Below are positions 53,201 to 64,000 of a stretch of DNA of 64,000 nucleotides, piece by piece (the first letter of the stretch is position 1; each line of letters opens with the position of its first letter). Origin of the DNA: a plasmid; the NCBI RefSeq assembly GCF_054482595.1, contig NZ_JBTHVH010000004.1; one strand, 5' to 3'. Position numbers: made by a program.

Positions 53201-56200
53201 AACTTGATGGTATGCCTGCGATCAATGCCAAACGTATTTACCGGATCATGCGCCAGAATGCGCTGTTGCTTGAGCGAAAACCCGCTGTACCGCCATCGAA
53301 ACGGGCACATACCGGCAGAGTGGCTGTGAAAGAAAGTAATCAGCGATGGTGCTCTGACGGGTTCGAGTTCCGCTGTGATAACGGAGAAAAACTGCGAGTC
53401 ACGTTCGCGCTGGACTGCTGTGACCGTGAGGCACTGCACTGGGCGGTCACTACGGGCGGCTTCAACAGTGAAACAGTACAGGACGTCATGCTGGGAGCGG
53501 TGGAACGCCGTTTCGGCAACGAGCTTCCGGCGTCTCCAGTAGAGTGGCTGACGGATAATGGTTCATGCTACCGGGCTAATGAAACACGGCAGTTTGCCCG
53601 GATGTTGGGGCTTGAACCGAAGAACACGGCGGTGCGGAGTCCGGAGAGTAACGGCATAGCAGAGAGCTTCGTGAAAACGATAAAGCGTGACTACATCAGT
53701 GTCATGCCCAAACCAGACGGGTTAACGGCAGCAAAGAACCTTGCAGAGGCATTCGAGCATTATAACGAATGGCATCCGCATAGTGCACTGGGTTATCGCT
53801 CGCCACGGGAATATCTACGGCAGCAAGCCAGTAATGGGTTAAGTGATAACAGGTGTCTGGAAATATAGGGGCAAATCCAATACGATCTGCAACGCTCGTT
53901 TTGGTCGAGACGGAGGAATACATAACCTTTTTATCGCTGTCTCGTGTGACCGTCACTCGCTCGTACCGATCAAGACCCGATATCAAGTTCAGAGTCAAAA
54001 CACCAGCGGGATTAAGATATGTTTGTGTTGCAGGTTTGATATTCCGAACAGCCTTATTGGTATCTGTAAATGAGTAGCTAAATACCTGAGCATGTGCCGA
54101 AGATACAGTAGCAAGGGCAGTTGCAACCATGCAGCCAATTAGAGTTTTACGCATATGATGCTCCGGGAATAGGTTATAGCCTTATTCTACGGATTCAGCC
54201 TACAAGGTCCGGTCGGATAAAGTGATAATTTGCCTGTTAAAAGAGACATCAAGTGAGAAAGCAACCAACGTACAGAATGCAAAATGGCGGCAGTGCATCT
54301 GGATGACGCAAAAGTAACTTTTTGTATCCACTTTTTTGGATTTTAGCCTTCAAAATGAGTATTCAACCAATCATAAAAGTAACTTTTGATAGACGCTGCT
54401 CCTTTATGTTTGCCAATTGTGCTGATATGTTTGTAAATTCAAGGAAGCGAGATTTTAAAAGCATCTGTTGAGTCAAATTTATGTAAAATAACAGGGAAAC
54501 CATCACTTCTAGGTTGAGGAAACCCAATGTTATACATGCTCTTATGCTGTTTTCTGATGCTCAACAGTACATTCGTTATGTTCAGAGCAATGTCTGCAAT
54601 AAGTAAAGGATCCGCTAAAGAAAACCGGTCTGAAATATCGCTGATAGTCCTAGCAACACTTGGAATCGCATCACCATTCATTGTCGCAATGATTACTATT
54701 AATGAAAGTATGACATCTAAAACAGTAACAGATTTTTCTTTGGGTGCTCAGTGGTACGGAATGGTTTCAGCGGTAGCGCTAATGGGGTTATATGCTCGAC
54801 GCGTTTGGAAAGAGAAGAAGTCCTTATTTACTGGCGCTTTCCTGGCCTCTTCCTTAATGGCCTTTATTTTTACTGACAGCCTTGTTTTCGTATCCCAGAA
54901 GGACACCGGCGTTCTGGCTACTTTCGTACTCGATAAAAACGCTGGAGATATTGATTGTAGTCGCCCGGCTATGATTGTCCATTACAGTAAAGGTGTTCCA
55001 ACGGACTGGCGTTGCCCAACCAGTATCATGTTGATGGCGTATTCTTCATATCCTTTTTTACCCTGGCCTGAGTATAGCCATGGTACCAGCCAGTCTCTTA
55101 CGGTTGTTATTGATACATTTATGGAAAACGCTGTTAATCTCAGCCAAAAATAAAAAATAAACCTCACTAGTGAGAGGTTTTATAAACCTGAGCCACCAAT
55201 CTAATTAACTCTATATTTTTGTTTTAGCTTTTTTAAAGATAGACTTACCGAATAAAACAGCAATTATAGAGCAAAGGCCTGGCGTTAGGACAAAAGCTAA
55301 TAATGCACTGCCAAAACTTGTCATTTCAGGCACCAGGAACCAGCTGATAGGCCACGTCAGGGCTGGTAAATTTAGCGGATCATAAAGCGCATGTAGAGCG
55401 CTTAACACACAGTAAAGTGCTAAAAAGCAAACTAGATAAACAACGATCCACATTTTAATTTGCTCAGCAATTTCAAATTTTGGACTGCCCATGCTTTACC
55501 TCAGTGGCTGAATATTGATGGTTAATATCTTTAATCACCCGTAAGCACTTAGTGCATACCTTAGTTCGATTTGTCTGCTTGTCCAGAGTGTATTTAACTT
55601 CAAGTTGACCTCCAGCATTAAGCAAAGTGAGCATCTCATCTTCTAACACGCTTCGGTAAATGGTCTTGGCCGAGAGTGTGCCCGGTAACGAGTACTCAAC
55701 ATAATTGTTTGAAACTCTTACCGATTTAGGGATTTTACCACTGAGCTGGGTTTCATTCGTTGAAGGCATTACAGTTACTTTAATCACAGTTGCCGGTGAC
55801 CAGAAATCCTGATAACGCACTTTATGAATTTTATCAGCTCTAAGGCCTAACCACACATTTCCGGCGATAAGAACAATAAGCAATCCATAAACTGATCGTC
55901 GAATGTTACGCCTTTTAATCACAATGTCCCCCATCCCTCAAATATCATTCTAAATAACTGCACCAGGATATCATGAGCGTAATTAATAGAATTCTTCATA
56001 ACCGGGGTTTTCAGTTGAGTTTGCGGACTCTTTACTTTGCGGTTTCTCACCCTCTAGTTGAGTATCCCTGACAGGCTTGGATTTACCCATGCTCCTCTGA
56101 AAGGTATCCATAACAAACTCAATATCTTCTTCTGGCAGGCTGGTGGGTTGGTTGCTCATAGGACTTCCTCTTGTTGAATACGTTCGGCGTACAGGATGCG

Positions 56201-62200: not shown

Positions 62201-64000
62201 ATTCACTGAGGCTGGTACCATATGACCATCAAGAGTAAAGAAAAGAGATTTCATTTTCGAAACACCTCCAAACGTGCCTCTACGATTGCTACAGCTTCTT
62301 TCACAGTTTTTTCATAGTGGTCATGCCCTTCAGGAAATTGATCAAAACGTTTACCGTGTTCTAACTCTTCCATGTTGCGTTTAAGGACTTCATGAGTTAG
62401 AAGCAAATCACTATAATTATCGATAAGAGTCAGCTTTATAGGTTTAATCACTCAACTAATCCTCGTTTTTAATATTCCTTAAGGAGATCTCGAATTTCCA
62501 GAAGCTCTTCTAATTTTGGTTTAGAAACAATGATTGCTGTATTTTCGTCGTTAAGTAAAGACAATAAAATATTTAGCTTTTCATCATTCAAGATTATTTG
62601 AACACCATCATTGGAAAATATTACATTATTACTATTAACATTTTTGAACAAGTGTGCACTATCTCTACCAAATTTTAGTTCTGTTTGAGTATTCGTTATA
62701 GATTCCGTATGTGTACTTTCCACAAGCTCAAGAAATTCAGATTTTAGCCGTTCTGTTTTCTTATGCGAGAGGCGCTTAATACCCAAAGTCTTACGAGTGA
62801 CTGCCGAATTTTTCTTTTCTGGTCCGCCTTTATTTAAGGTGTCTGGTCCTGCTCCAGCTGCATTGTGTTCAGGTATGCCTACAATTTTGCTCGTTGTAGT
62901 CTCAATATTCTTAACGCCAGGTAAGAAACCTTCTATATGTTTTAAAACCATTTTGTGATCGTTGGAATATTTTAACATTATTTCAATGGCGAGCGTTTTT
63001 TTGATTAGATTTAGGCTAATCAAACGTTGAAGCTCTAATGGCATATCAAGGATTTTTAGCATATTACGAATTGCGGTAGTTGATCGTTGATATCGCATTG
63101 CTAGTTCTTCAACCGAATACCCGAGACTAACAGCATGAGCTAATGCATGAGCTTGCCCAACCGGATTTAGCCCATTGCTTCTGTTACCATCGAGGTTCTC
63201 AAGGTATTCTTCAATTTCGTTTTTATAATCGATTAGGATAACAGATAATTTTGGAATATTAGCACCTTCAGAAATTGCTAATTTTAAGCCATGAAAACGA
63301 GTATGACCTTGACGAACTAAATATTTACCTTTTCTTTTTACGACCTTGATCATATCAACCTGCCTTCCTTCCTTAAAGGCTTGTTTGATTGACACAATCA
63401 TCGACTTGACAGGTTCTTGTTCGTAACACAAATCTCCGATTACCGCCTCTCGGGGATTAAATCCCTTTTCAATTTCAACTAGATTAGTATCCACTTCAAT
63501 GACTGTATGTTTGCTGTTGTTCATATCTTCCTCCTGTTTACTACATGATACATGAACCTCAAATTTGCCAAATAGGGCTGATACATCTAAAAGGTAAACT
63601 TAAAAAATTTGCTTAATAAAATTAAAATAAAAACTGTCTTGAATAAAACAATGATAGTAGACCCTCGTTCATTTCCGTTTGCGATCTGTAGATATTGTTA
63701 AAGGAGCGCTATTCCTTGTTTTATATGGACTTATCATTGTTTTCAACAGGATAGATCAATTCTTTAGATCACTAAAGATCAATAGAGTTCAAGTAAAGAT
63801 CACGGCATCTTTAACTCATTGATTATAGTGACTTTATGAAAGGATCCGGCATTCGGATGCATGCGAAAAGCATTTGAATGAATAAGGAAGGCATTTACTG
63901 GAATGCTTATGGCATTTAGGTTAATGCGTAAAAAGCATTTGCAAGAATATGTTATAAACAGTTTGCCAAATGAAAATCTTATCACCGACGAGTTAAGTTA

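Follow-up and report, generated by a model that had tools for sequence, protein, structure and literature searches.

What is the function of the 9-kb stretch near the right end of the window (the whole 64,000-nucleotide stretch of plasmid DNA that was analyzed), in which two genes for ParB-like proteins and two genes for adenine methyltransferases are clustered with several other ORFs? An earlier note, made from the sequence alone, had proposed a candidate anti-defence or establishment region. We evaluated this proposal together with the possibilities that the genes serve plasmid partition, replication, or conjugative transfer.

Gene content and conservation of the block

The window is part of an IncHI2 plasmid. 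Every ORF that the earlier note had described was found at the position and on the strand that it had given, but for two of them a later start is most likely. The start of the Dam-family methylase, which diverges from the first minus-strand gene string as described, is most likely at 59628, as in the RefSeq annotation, rather than at 59607. A 285-aa ORF (60449 to 61306) is real, but most likely starts at 61282 and encodes 277 aa, because its orthologs align only from residue 9. The features are as follows:

54527..55153, plus strand: 208-aa membrane protein, intact only in IncHI2, with a short remnant in IncHI1
55159..55180, minus strand: terminator-like hairpin closing the minus-strand string, also just past the stop of the 208-aa ORF
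55211..55492, minus strand: 93-aa membrane protein with two hydrophobic segments, IncHI2 specific
55473..55934, minus strand: 153-aa basic protein with one N-terminal transmembrane-like segment, IncHI2 specific
55983..56159, minus strand: 58-aa acidic ORF (pI 4.4), ortholog of R0044 (61% identical in IncHI1)
56156..57847, minus strand: DUF4942-fused N6-adenine methyltransferase, 563 aa, ortholog of R0043 (70% identical)
57988..58005, minus strand: strong terminator-like hairpin between the ParB-like-1 and methyltransferase genes
58095..59258, minus strand: ParB-like-1, 387 aa, ortholog of R27 R0042 (74% identical)
59628..60440, plus strand: Dam-family (D12-class) N6-adenine DNA methyltransferase, ortholog of R0041 (71% identical), divergent from ParB-like-1
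60449..61282, minus strand: 277-aa protein, ortholog of R0040, with a predicted Rep-like tandem winged-helix fold
61538..62254, minus strand: zinc-ribbon protein, 238 aa, ortholog of R0039
62251..62451, minus strand: 66-aa ORF, ortholog of R0038 (51% identical in IncHI1), its stop overlapping the start of the zinc-finger gene
62469..63524, minus strand: ParB-like-2, 351 aa, ortholog of R27 R0037 (58% identical)

Matches to the 9-kb stretch with 95% identity or more were found in 1,121 PLSDB plasmid records, 968 of which are typed as conjugative. By annotation the block lies between repHI2 and a trfA-like initiator gene, adjoining trhL/E/K/B/V/C. Its synteny is kept in the IncHI1 plasmid pSAL4596-1 and in R27 (R0037 to R0044), and all eight core genes have IncHI1/R27 orthologs with 51 to 74% protein identity. 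Two distant metagenomic elements (L013 and L014) carry the same eight genes in the same order and orientation, at 24 to 57% protein identity. The conserved order is ParB-like-2, the 66-aa ORF, the zinc-ribbon/OB-like protein, the winged-helix Rep-like protein, the Dam-family methylase (on the strand opposite to the other seven), ParB-like-1, the DUF4942 methylase, and the 58-aa acidic ORF. The gene content does not vary between IncHI1, IncHI2, and the more distant elements, and this arrangement of eight genes occurs only in IncHI-like plasmids. Chance occurrence of the ORFs is very unlikely because of the number of closely matching records and the orthologs of every core gene. The block forms a module of the core backbone in conjugative plasmids of the IncHI type, which have a MOBH relaxase and an F-type mating-pair system; it is flanked by two replication initiator genes and lies beside the Tra2 pilus operon.

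At its left end this core is extended, in IncHI2 only, by three membrane ORFs. The two that had been assigned to the first minus-strand string, whose products do contain hydrophobic segments, are absent from IncHI1, the 153-aa protein from R27 as well. The 208-aa ORF, which has a fragmentary tblastn match in two further sequences (L009 and L010), is also part of the region. The description of the region as an AT-rich island holds against the resistance mosaic in the window, but not against the IncHI2 backbone (41.3% GC versus 41 to 48% in backbone segments). Low GC is found only in the right-hand part (37.8% in the right half and 35.6% at 61 to 64 kb).

The hairpin thought to end the first minus-strand string is real, with a terminator-like stem followed by a T-run. 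The genes of that string and their order stand, but ParB-like-1 and the methyltransferase are probably in separate transcription units because the second hairpin (GCCCCG...CGGGGC, then T9) separates them. Array signals in R27 agree, with R0043 (217) about 28-fold lower than R0042 (6132).

The ParB-like proteins are not ordinary partition proteins

As had been proposed, ParB-like-1 and ParB-like-2 are true paralogs (30% identity over 174 residues, E = 4e-22), and IncHI plasmids carry three such paralogs. ParB-like-1 consists of a ParB N-domain with GHCR, an HTH_ParB domain, and a charged C-terminal tail (phrog_1033, E = 3.3e-28). ParB-like-2 has a ParB N-terminal NTPase-type domain, in which GHTR replaces GERR, followed by a ParB HTH (phrog_1033, E = 1.9e-25; Pfam HTH_ParB, E = 1.4e-5). 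The family profile matches the structures of Spo0J, ParB, and Noc (E = 3e-13 to 3e-7), covering both the N-domain and the HTH. The G and R of Box II are invariant in the family alignment, and Box III of the NTPase domain is divergent, with D-G-N-R-G instead of ENLQR. With this Box III sequence, the proteins may not hydrolyze CTP or close as clamps.

The domain architecture, and the published label of R0042 in R27 as a "partition protein," would fit ordinary partition loci, in which the ParB-like proteins are centromere-binding components of additional type I systems that use a ParA encoded elsewhere. However, no ParA gene adjoining the ParB-like genes was found in the annotation, and a search of the region for a centromere-like repeat array found none. 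Scores against TIGR00180 are 32 to 34 bits, below the cut-off of 58.45. Dedicated systems are present elsewhere: plasmid pSJ_255 has genuine ParA/ParB (15.5 to 17.7 kb) and ParM (20.8 kb) genes within the Tra2 transfer region. Furthermore, the published R27 deletions Del1 (40,355 to 46,955) and Del2 (46,955 to 53,655) together take out the whole homologous block, and in stability assays in Escherichia coli only deletion 16 of the R27 set lowered stability. The block is thus dispensable for plasmid stability in those deletions. The partition explanation is disfavoured and, in our judgment, highly improbable. The earlier suspicion that these might not be partition proteins is borne out by the separate ParAB and ParM modules, the stable R27 deletions, and the lack of an adjacent ParA: the block is not a partition locus, and its ParB-like proteins are not ordinary partition proteins.

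Two orphan methylases and a coupled small ORF

The Dam-family protein scores 227.6 bits against TIGR00571 (E = 2.2e-67; cut-off, 114.85) and has DPPY at residue 181. Its score against the E. coli Dam equivalog model is 168.9, short of the cut-off of 441, and GATC is accordingly a putative target. Orthologs in the two metagenomic elements are 54 to 57% identical. The 563-aa methyltransferase joins an N-terminal DUF4942 domain (Pfam, E = 1.7e-21, plus weaker methyltransferase-family matches) to a C-terminal gamma-class methyltransferase domain. The expected NPPF is present, at residue 486; motif I reads LEPNIGHADLL, and phrog_6263 is matched over the full length (E = 1.4e-111). Solitary full-length homologs, with no endonuclease neighbour, occur in SSU5-type phage-plasmids and Pseudomonas phages. 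The 58-aa ORF is coupled to this gene, as proposed, through an ATGA stop/start overlap; its match in L013 is weak (34%).

The annotation contains no endonuclease gene near the two methylases, in line with their earlier description as orphans. Evasion of restriction through their predicted activity is plausible. The hosts of IncHI plasmids already have their own Dam, so that it is not evident what protection a further GATC methylase would give.

Predicted nucleic acid-binding proteins

The zinc ribbon proposed for the 238-aa protein was confirmed by an invariant RxCxxCxGxG...CxxCxG. An AF2 model (pLDDT 66, pTM 0.34) has an N-terminal Zn module, a helical linker, and a C-terminal OB-like beta-barrel; its Foldseek matches were SSB/OB-fold proteins and the N-terminal domains of MCM proteins (probabilities of 0.95 to 1.0, weak E-values of 3e-3 to 0.1). 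Orthologs in L013 and L014 are 30 to 34% identical, and those of the 66-aa ORF are 32 to 41% identical. The predicted Rep-like fold of the 277-aa protein was without sequence support. Both structural models are moderate (pLDDT about 66) and suggest a zinc-ribbon/OB-fold protein and a Rep-like winged-helix protein, respectively. These two products, which had been listed among unknown ORFs as anti-defence candidates, are better described, from their predicted folds, as putative nucleic acid-binding proteins.

Position and expression relative to conjugative transfer

Orphan methylases and ParB homologs are reported as typical cargo of plasmid leading regions. The block might accordingly be an island for anti-defence or establishment, whose genes would be expressed soon after entry into the recipient and would guard incoming DNA against restriction, CRISPR, or the SOS response as IncF and IncI leading regions do. 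The two orphan adenine methylases, the small acidic ORF coupled to one of them, and the shared orientation of most of the genes are consistent with this, and a possible OB-fold single-stranded-DNA-binding protein would suit handling of the entering strand. However, the analogy with leading regions fails on position. In pSJ_255, a conjugative IncHI2 plasmid, mobI and the MOBH relaxase gene are at 187.3 to 191.7 kb and the island is at 245.9 to 254.9 kb. It is thus on the relaxase side of the presumed oriT, at a distance of about 59 kb or about 64 annotated genes. Samuel et al., who took the relaxase side as lagging, found enrichment on the leading side alone, within approximately its first 30 ORFs. 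The block is not a plasmid leading region. Furthermore, no protein matched ArdA, KlcA, PsiB, canonical SSB, or other named anti-defence families in NCBIfam, PHROGs, PADLOC, or Pfam; a gene set that stays the same across such deep divergence is unlike an anti-defence hotspot with fast turnover; and the Dam-family and 208-aa genes are on the opposite strand.

Expression in R27 also argues against establishment in the recipient, because genes of the block are expressed in donor cells, within the transfer regulon under HtdA control. R0042, the ParB-like-1 ortholog, is among the most highly expressed R27 genes, with array signals of 6132 at 25°C, 2278 at 37°C, and 20561 in an htdA mutant. Its expression is higher at 25°C, and higher in the htdA mutant at both temperatures; the authors of the arrays singled it out as induced under all conjugation-promoting conditions. 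At 25°C the htdA mutation raised R0037 to R0041 by 4- to 19-fold, and R0043, the DUF4942 methylase, was not co-induced (1.5-fold). Co-induction is weak evidence for a specific transfer link because the htdA mutation derepresses 139 of the 181 expressed R27 genes. Considering position, family matches, fixed gene content, and donor expression together, we regard the anti-defence proposal as unlikely.

The flanking replicons

The block lies exactly between two initiator genes in both IncHI1 and IncHI2, so a replicon-accessory module serving both flanking IncHI replicons was also considered. Dam methylation of GATC clusters at the initiator genes would then affect initiation control or SeqA sequestration, and the Rep-like and ParB-like proteins would bind origin-proximal DNA, with effects on copy number, handcuffing, or incompatibility. 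One such cluster is near the end of the window:

63683..63846, no strand: cluster of six GATC sites (29157 to 29320 in L001) between ParB-like-2 and the second replication initiator gene, which is just past the window end

In 49 kb of pD90-1, GATC sites cluster at two places only, each a short distance upstream of one of the two rep genes, and R27 has the same pattern. The modeled Rep-like fold of the 277-aa protein would also fit, and in L013 a different, 543-aa gene holds the rep position with the block kept beside it. However, R27 carrying Del1 or Del2 is viable and stable, temperature regulation of repHIA (R0036) runs opposite to that of R0042, no iterons were found within the block, and the Rep-like fold comes from a moderate model that lacks sequence support. 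A replicon-accessory function therefore appears quite doubtful.

A recurrent palindrome

A 13-bp palindrome, AAAAGT-N-ACTTTT, is present in 23 copies on the IncHI backbone, mostly at promoters. Copies in and beside the block are as follows:

54310..54387, no strand: two exact copies, 65 nt apart, in the divergent gap between an Ig-like gene remnant and the 208-aa ORF
59338..59350, no strand: variant AAAAGGTACTTTT, 80 bp upstream of ParB-like-1
61202..61214, no strand: exact copy inside the 5' end of the 277-aa gene (about +68), at the same position in R27 R0040

The variant also lies 96 bp upstream of R0042 in R27, and palindromes are found 118 bp upstream of a Klebsiella homolog and 131 bp upstream of the L013 ortholog of ParB-like-1. 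In R27, one copy precedes the Ig-like gene R0045 by about 190 bp.

A probable transfer-linked module and its relation to known systems

The best explanation, which we hold with about even confidence, is a transfer-linked DNA-modification and DNA-binding module with ParB regulators resembling KorB or BisD and self-protective orphan methylases. BisD, KorB, and VirB, all ParB-like CTP switches, control the expression of genes on mobile elements, and plasmid orphan methylases are documented to protect entering DNA.

KorB of the IncP-1 plasmid RK2, a CTP-dependent sliding clamp and global repressor, is like the IncHI proteins a plasmid-encoded ParB fold with an HTH, and by analogy they may likewise regulate plasmid gene expression. 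The operators of KorB are 13-bp palindromes scattered over the backbone; the IncHI palindromes, including those upstream of ParB-like genes, are candidate sites only. KorB is also a partition ParB with the ParA partner IncC, whereas the IncHI proteins have no partner. Boxes II and III diverge in the IncHI proteins, in contrast to KorB, which was not among the PDB sequence matches to the family profile.

BisD of ICEclc, a ParB-like CTP clamp that activates transfer-competence promoters, is similarly an orphan on a conjugative element and tied to transfer-gene expression. It depends on the GxxR arginine, and GxxR is kept in the IncHI proteins, which are co-expressed with tra genes. However, BisD has an additional activator domain and a BisC partner, neither identified for the IncHI proteins; there is one BisD but three IncHI paralogs, with no close sequence relationship detectable. 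VirB of the Shigella virulence plasmid pINV, a CTP-dependent H-NS anti-silencer, is also plasmid borne and ParB-like and has no ParA. The DNA on which it acts is AT-rich and controlled by H-NS, and IncHI transfer is under H-NS/Hha control; VirB-type sequences were not among the matches of the IncHI proteins, and anti-silencing is a feature of VirB.

The methylases resemble M.EcoGIX of pESBL and other leading-region methylases (Fomenkov et al. 2020; Samuel et al. 2024) in being orphan N6-adenine enzymes of conjugative plasmids. [quoted passage not shown] Phage and phage-plasmid methylases (phrog_6263, such as SSU5 gp095, and phage Dam) include proteins 30 to 32% identical over about 95% of the DUF4942 methylase. 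They are solitary, like the IncHI enzyme in having no endonuclease but unlike it in having no neighbouring ParB-like gene.

In the transfer-linked module that we favor, the two ParA-less ParB-family proteins would be sequence-specific DNA-binding NTP-switch proteins, acting as plasmid regulators or DNA clamps, like KorB, BisD, and VirB, rather than as segregation adaptors. The two orphan methylases would modify plasmid DNA and so protect it from restriction after transfer, and the Dam-family enzyme may in addition methylate the GATC clusters flanking both initiator genes. The zinc-ribbon/OB and winged-helix proteins would be accessory nucleic acid-binding factors. The module would be switched on in the donor together with the transfer genes, and would therefore be transfer linked. 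Such functions would belong to an eight-gene block that is anciently conserved in the backbone of IncHI multidrug-resistance plasmids.

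Gene content of the island

All of the ORFs that the earlier note had placed in the island of this IncHI2 plasmid (54527-63524) were reproduced by an ORF listing, with the same coordinates and strands. The two ParB-like proteins, designated ParB-like-1 (58095-59258, minus strand) and ParB-like-2 (62469-63524, minus strand), are paralogs that share 30% identity over 174 residues (E = 4e-22). The NPPF motif claimed for the minus-strand methyltransferase is at residue 486 of a 563-aa protein, preceded by a motif I-like LEPNIGHADLL. The 58-aa ORF is coupled to this gene as proposed, its start overlapping the methyltransferase stop codon in the sequence ATGA. 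Hydrophobic segments are present in both of the left-end ORFs (153 and 93 aa), as expected of the membrane proteins that they were said to encode, and the hairpin noted in this region scores as terminator-like at 55159-55180.

Other descriptions required adjustment. The ORF listed as 285 aa is present, but its start is probably at 61282, giving a protein of 277 aa. Similarly, the Dam-type methyltransferase gene is on the plus strand, but it probably starts at 59628. The genes of the proposed string that begins with ParB-like-1 are all there, but a strong terminator-like hairpin (58005-57988) lies between ParB-like-1 and the methyltransferase. The island was also described as AT-rich. This is the case only in comparison with the resistance mosaic in the window because the GC content of the island, 41.3%, falls inside the 41-48% range of the backbone. 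No RNA family in the island was matched in Rfam. A scan for promoter consensus sequences was not used as evidence because it yielded fewer matches (16) than were found in shuffled sequence (23.8).

The gene for an Ig-like surface protein beside the island (50362-54154), a homolog of R0045 of the IncHI1 reference plasmid R27, is interrupted by an IS3-family insertion with transposase ORFs at 52595-53005 and 52963-53868. The insertion is flanked by a 714-aa ORF (50362-52506) and a 150-aa ORF (53702-54154) with a signal-peptide-like N terminus. Related Ig-like proteins in R27 have been reported to be necessary for conjugation.

Conservation of the eight-gene block

The 9-kb stretch was found with at least 95% identity in 1,121 plasmid records, 1,086 of them with at least 80% coverage. 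The hosts were Escherichia, Salmonella, Enterobacter, and relatives, and 968 of the records were typed as conjugative. A DNA-level search of phage records with the same stretch gave no match. In IncHI2 annotation the block is flanked on one side by the RepHI2 initiator, with its Ig-like gene, and on the other by a second, trfA-like initiator, which is followed by the Tra2 pilus genes trhL/E/K/B/V/C. IncHI1 plasmids, including R27 (NC_002305), have the identical gene order directly after repHIA.

R27 counterparts of the eight genes of the block, with protein identity
R0037: ParB-like-2, 58%
R0038: 66-aa ORF, 51%
R0039: zinc-finger protein, 53%
R0040: 277-aa protein, 62%
R0041: Dam-family methyltransferase, 71%
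R0042: ParB-like-1, 74%
R0043: DUF4942 methyltransferase (563 aa), 70%
R0044: 58-aa ORF, 61%

Only IncHI2 plasmids have the three membrane ORFs found at the left end of the island. An exhaustive profile search with the 277-aa family recovered nine cluster representatives among 1.84 billion proteins, and the contigs that encode the two most distant of these (metagenomic elements L013 and L014) were analyzed for gene order. On the 31-kb contig L013, the whole block follows TraK, TraE, small ORFs, and a 543-aa ORF, in that order, and is itself followed by an Ig-like gene; the core of the block is also present on L014, where it runs to the end of the contig. All eight genes are orthologous in these distant elements by tblastn (24 to 57% identity), and therefore the block is an ancient fixed unit rather than a variable cargo island.

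A reduced block, comprised of a zinc-finger homolog, a 254-aa ORF, and a ParB-like gene, is present on a Klebsiella MOBH plasmid, adjoining that plasmid's own trhL-type genes and Ig-like gene. With an hhalign probability of 0.1, the 254-aa ORF was rejected as a distant relative of the 277-aa protein. In IncC plasmids, an orphan methylase gene is preceded, at a distance of a few genes, by a ParB-like gene with 30% identity.

ParB-like proteins without a partition locus

Both ParB-like proteins match Pfam HTH_ParB and phrog_1033 (E = 3e-28 and 2e-25). A seven-member family profile matched Spo0J, ParB, and Noc structures in the PDB (E = 3e-13 to 3e-7) over the N-terminal nucleotide-binding domain and the helix-turn-helix. 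Thus, the family has the arrangement that defines ParB/Spo0J/Noc proteins, an N-terminal domain with a Box II GxxR followed by a ParB-type helix-turn-helix. In the residue-level alignment GERR of Box II is replaced by GHCR or GHTR, with the glycine and last arginine invariant, and ENLQR of Box III is replaced by D-G-N-R-G. A recent survey of the ParB-CTPase fold took the Box II arginine as its determinant of nucleotide binding and found orphan ParB proteins and ParB-methylase fusions to be widespread.

The earlier note suspected that these might not be partition proteins because no ParA partner was visible. There is no ParA-like ORF in the 54.5- to 63.5-kb region, and a repeat search in and around the block found no centromere array (repeats or parS palindromes) but only isolated copies of a plasmid-wide palindrome. 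The conjugative IncHI2 plasmid pSJ_255 has both a genuine ParA/ParB pair (15.5-17.7 kb) and a ParM module (20.8 kb) inside Tra2, and approximately 18 kb separate the block from the plasmid's own ParA/ParB pair. Among 19 segmental deletions of R27 made by Tassinari et al., Del16 was the only one with lowered stability. Del1 (40,355-46,955) and Del2 (46,955-53,655), which removed R0037 to R0046, were both obtained. The suspicion is therefore supported by the lack of ParA and a centromere at the block, the location of ParAB and ParM elsewhere, and the published stability of the R27 deletions. The ParB-like genes of the block are not a type I (ParABS) partition locus. The ParA-interaction motif (L/F/I)G(K/R)G(L/F/I) is absent from all of the ParB-like paralogs and likewise from the plasmid's genuine P1-type ParB. 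In the literature on R27, the only other "partition gene" that is coinduced with conjugation is R0153, which adjoins the cytosine methylase gene R0154, also induced; no IncHI2 counterpart of R0153 was identifiable as ParB-like.

KorB, VirB, and BisD provide a precedent for ParB-like proteins with other functions. They are orphan or dual-use switches that control mobile-element genes, and BisD is an activator of transfer-competence promoters on a conjugative element.

A third ParB-like paralog was located by tblastn outside the window, just past the Tra1 relaxase operon of pSJ_255 (202,388-203,572; positions 47020-48204 of locus L006, minus strand). It is 394 aa long and 32% identical to ParB-like-1 (E = 1e-23). 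Other candidates for the third paralog proved wrong: the 401-aa ORF beside a short DUF4942 gene, the ORF adjoining a C5 methylase gene, and a PAPS-reductase-family protein. The plasmid's genuine ParB gave no significant match.

Position of the block relative to the leading region

The ParB-like genes and orphan methylases had been likened to those of plasmid leading regions, with the suggestion that the neighboring ORFs might have anti-defense functions. The position of the block was compared with the transfer landmarks of pSJ_255.

187.3 kb: mobI
188.5-191.7 kb: MOBH relaxase gene
191.7-193.8 kb: traD
245.9-254.9 kb: the island

mobI has been reported to be directly beside oriT in R27 and SXT. 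The distance from the island to the mobI/oriT gap is approximately 59 kb, with about 64 annotated coding sequences, on the relaxase side and approximately 188 kb the other way. Under the convention of Samuel et al. (2024), the relaxase side is lagging and anti-defense genes are enriched in about the first 30 ORFs on the other side. Judged by this convention, the analogy fails because a block some 59 kb and 64 genes from the presumed oriT on the relaxase side is outside the leading region. The H-pilus preprint merely cites the leading-region paper.

The two orphan N6-adenine methylases of the block are in accord with a leading region. No known anti-restriction, anti-CRISPR, SOS-inhibitor, or canonical SSB family was matched in the block with NCBIfam, PHROGs, PADLOC, or Pfam. 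By its position under that convention and by these searches, the block is probably not an anti-defense island of the leading-region type. The part of the earlier reading that stands is the combination of nonpartition ParB-like proteins with orphan methylases, and these genes alone do not identify a leading region.

Sequence searches with the zinc-finger protein against the PDB, Pfam, NCBIfam, PHROGs, and PADLOC returned nothing useful except a DnaJ-type zinc motif, and the same searches with the 277-aa protein returned nothing useful. The 277-aa protein may have a tandem winged-helix fold of the kind seen in iteron-plasmid replication initiators (RepA/RctB, WH1-WH2). In the structural model of the zinc-finger protein (pLDDT of 66, pTM of 0.34), a zinc-ribbon beta module is joined through a helical linker to a C-terminal barrel. 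Foldseek matched the barrel to the OB-fold proteins hSSB1, a mycobacterial SSB, PrgE of pCF10, and PriB and to MCM N-terminal domains, with high probability and weak E values. The barrel is predicted, with low-to-moderate confidence, to be OB-fold-like and of a single-stranded-DNA-binding type.

Orphan methylases and GATC clusters

Both of the adenine methyltransferases that had been claimed are of the N6-adenine type, and both are orphans. In the 563-aa protein, DUF4942 (E = 1.7e-21) occupies the N-terminal part and a methyltransferase region the C-terminal part, the latter with weaker matches to N6-methylases. The protein matches phrog_6263, a phage methyltransferase family, over its full length (E = 1.4e-111). 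Full-length relatives with 30 to 32% identity are carried by phages of Pseudomonas and Aeromonas and by phage-plasmids of the SSU5 type. These relatives stand alone, without an endonuclease or ParB-like neighbor, which is the pattern of a mobile-element orphan methylase. A ParB-like and DUF4942-methylase pair conserved outside IncHI was considered and rejected because the phage homologs lack the ParB-like neighbor; the short DUF4942 paralog was also rejected as part of such a pair, having only the N-terminal domain in common. An orphan methylase, M.EcoGIX, has been shown to protect entering plasmid DNA. Nothing relevant to DUF4942 function or to IncHI methylomes was found in the indexed literature.

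The plus-strand enzyme scored 227.6 bits against TIGR00571 (cutoff, 114.85) and has DPPY at residue 181, which places it in the Dam family (D12 class). Its score against the E. coli Dam equivalog model was 168.9, below the cutoff of 441, and thus GATC specificity is not established. Within 49 kb of plasmid pD90-1, just two dense GATC clusters are present, each immediately before an initiator gene, and the same is true of R27. The clusters have 4 to 7 sites within 55 to 165 nt.

GATC clusters upstream of initiator genes
IncHI2, window 63683-63846 (L001 29157-29320)
IncHI2, L001 16251-16306
R27, L010 10512-10603
R27, L010 25381-25541

Because these clusters are upstream of initiator genes, replicon control is suggested as an alternative or additional role for the Dam-family enzyme. 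The clusters, together with the plasmid's own methylase of this family, suggest methylation-dependent control of origins or rep promoters.

The plasmid's Dam-family methylase is encoded between its two replicons. A 19-nt direct repeat, AAAAGCATTTGAATGAATA, is present in two copies (window 63866-63884 and 63931-63949) that are 89% identical and 65 nt apart. These repeats face the trfA-like initiator gene from the window end and are possible iterons for the second replicon.

The set of DNA-modification genes in the IncHI2 backbone is unusually large. At least four more methyltransferase-type genes, including those for a C5 cytosine methylase and a site-specific methylase, are found outside the window, on pSJ_255 at 105,179-110,476, 217,283-224,101, and 232,901-233,662 (loci L003 and L004). 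Among them is the gene for a 253-aa methyltransferase whose sequence is 27% identical to that of the C-terminal domain in the 563-aa enzyme. The backbone also encodes another DUF4942 protein, which is short and has that domain only, and a member of the PAPS-reductase family.

A 13-bp palindrome of the IncHI backbone

The palindrome AAAAGT-N-ACTTTT is present at seven distinct sites in the window, compared with an expected 0.07. There are 23 copies in 250 kb of pSJ_255, compared with two or fewer for any of 59 composition-matched permutations of the arms. The spacing of the arms is strictly 1 nt, and approximately 14 of the 23 copies are intergenic, as read from annotation tables.

Sites of the palindrome
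Window: 7333, 44047, 46271, 54310, 54375, 59338, 61202
pSJ_255: loci L002, L004, L005, and L006
R27: L010
Klebsiella plasmid: L007
Distant metagenomic element: L013, 10078

Several of these positions are conserved between IncHI2 and R27. They include the site upstream of ParB-like-1/R0042, which is the same off-center variant in both, the site at +68 of the 277-aa gene, and the sites upstream of the Ig-like gene, htdT, and trhA. The palindrome is also found at tra promoters, in the oriT/mobI gap, and upstream of three ParB-like genes, and the third paralog has two exact copies approximately 90 and 216 bp upstream. Several copies are clustered around the ParB-like operon of the Klebsiella (pNDM-MAR-type) plasmid, and the one copy on L013 is 131 bp upstream of the ParB-like-1 ortholog. 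The palindrome was not described in the indexed literature.

The palindrome could be an operator of tra regulators or of the ParB-like proteins. No DNA-binding domain was recognizable in the proteins at the trhR, trhY, and htdA positions, the trhR and trhY ORFs being assigned by position only. A more specific proposal, which we consider unlikely, is that ParB-like-1 (the R0042 family), possibly with its two paralogs, is a KorB/BisD-type global regulator of IncHI plasmids that loads at the palindrome. If so, the TrhR/TrhY/HtdA circuit behind thermosensitive IncHI conjugation would have its missing DNA-binding component in ParB-like-1, and the eight-gene block would serve as a hub for regulation and DNA modification.

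Expression of the block with the transfer genes

Published microarrays of R27, which covered donor cultures only, suggest a link to transfer. With a signal of 6132 at 25°C (2278 at 37°C), R0042 was among the most strongly expressed genes of R27. The signal was 20561 in the derepressed htdA mutant, in which R0042 was also upregulated 3.7-fold at 37°C. The authors of the arrays listed R0042 among the few non-tra genes that were induced under every conjugation-promoting condition. Other genes of the block also increased in the htdA mutant at 25°C (R0037, 4.2-fold; R0038, 7.0-fold; R0039, 5.0-fold; R0040, 18.6-fold; R0041, 7.8-fold), as did the Ig-like gene R0045 (8.4-fold). The methylase gene R0043 changed only 1.5-fold, which fits with a terminator upstream of R0043. 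Coinduction is weak as a specific link to transfer because 139 of the 181 expressed R27 genes increased in the htdA mutant.

The interpretation that we favor, with roughly even chances of being correct, is that the island is a conserved module of the IncHI backbone that is linked to transfer and concerned with DNA binding and DNA modification. In such a module the ParB-like members would act in the manner of KorB, BisD, or VirB, and the most likely role of the methylases would be self-protection, with methylation of origins as a possible further one.

Implications

The genes themselves are already known, having entered databases with the sequence of R27. The new elements are their recognition as a fixed eight-gene unit, the third paralog, the two predicted folds, and the palindrome. 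IncHI1 and IncHI2 plasmids rank among the major vehicles of multidrug resistance in Salmonella, E. coli, and Enterobacter; blaCTX-M, oqxAB, and numerous further resistance genes are present in the IncHI2 records that matched the island. Approximately two thirds of the IncHI backbone genes have no assigned function. A block that has been annotated as hypothetical or "partition" can now be regarded as an ancient eight-gene unit tied to the transfer regulon. Together with the operator-like 13-bp site, which is found at many promoters of the backbone, it offers testable handles on temperature-dependent transfer and on how plasmid DNA is readied for a new host. Should the methylases prove to protect against restriction, or the ParB-like proteins to control tra expression, these proteins would be targets for limiting the spread of the plasmids.
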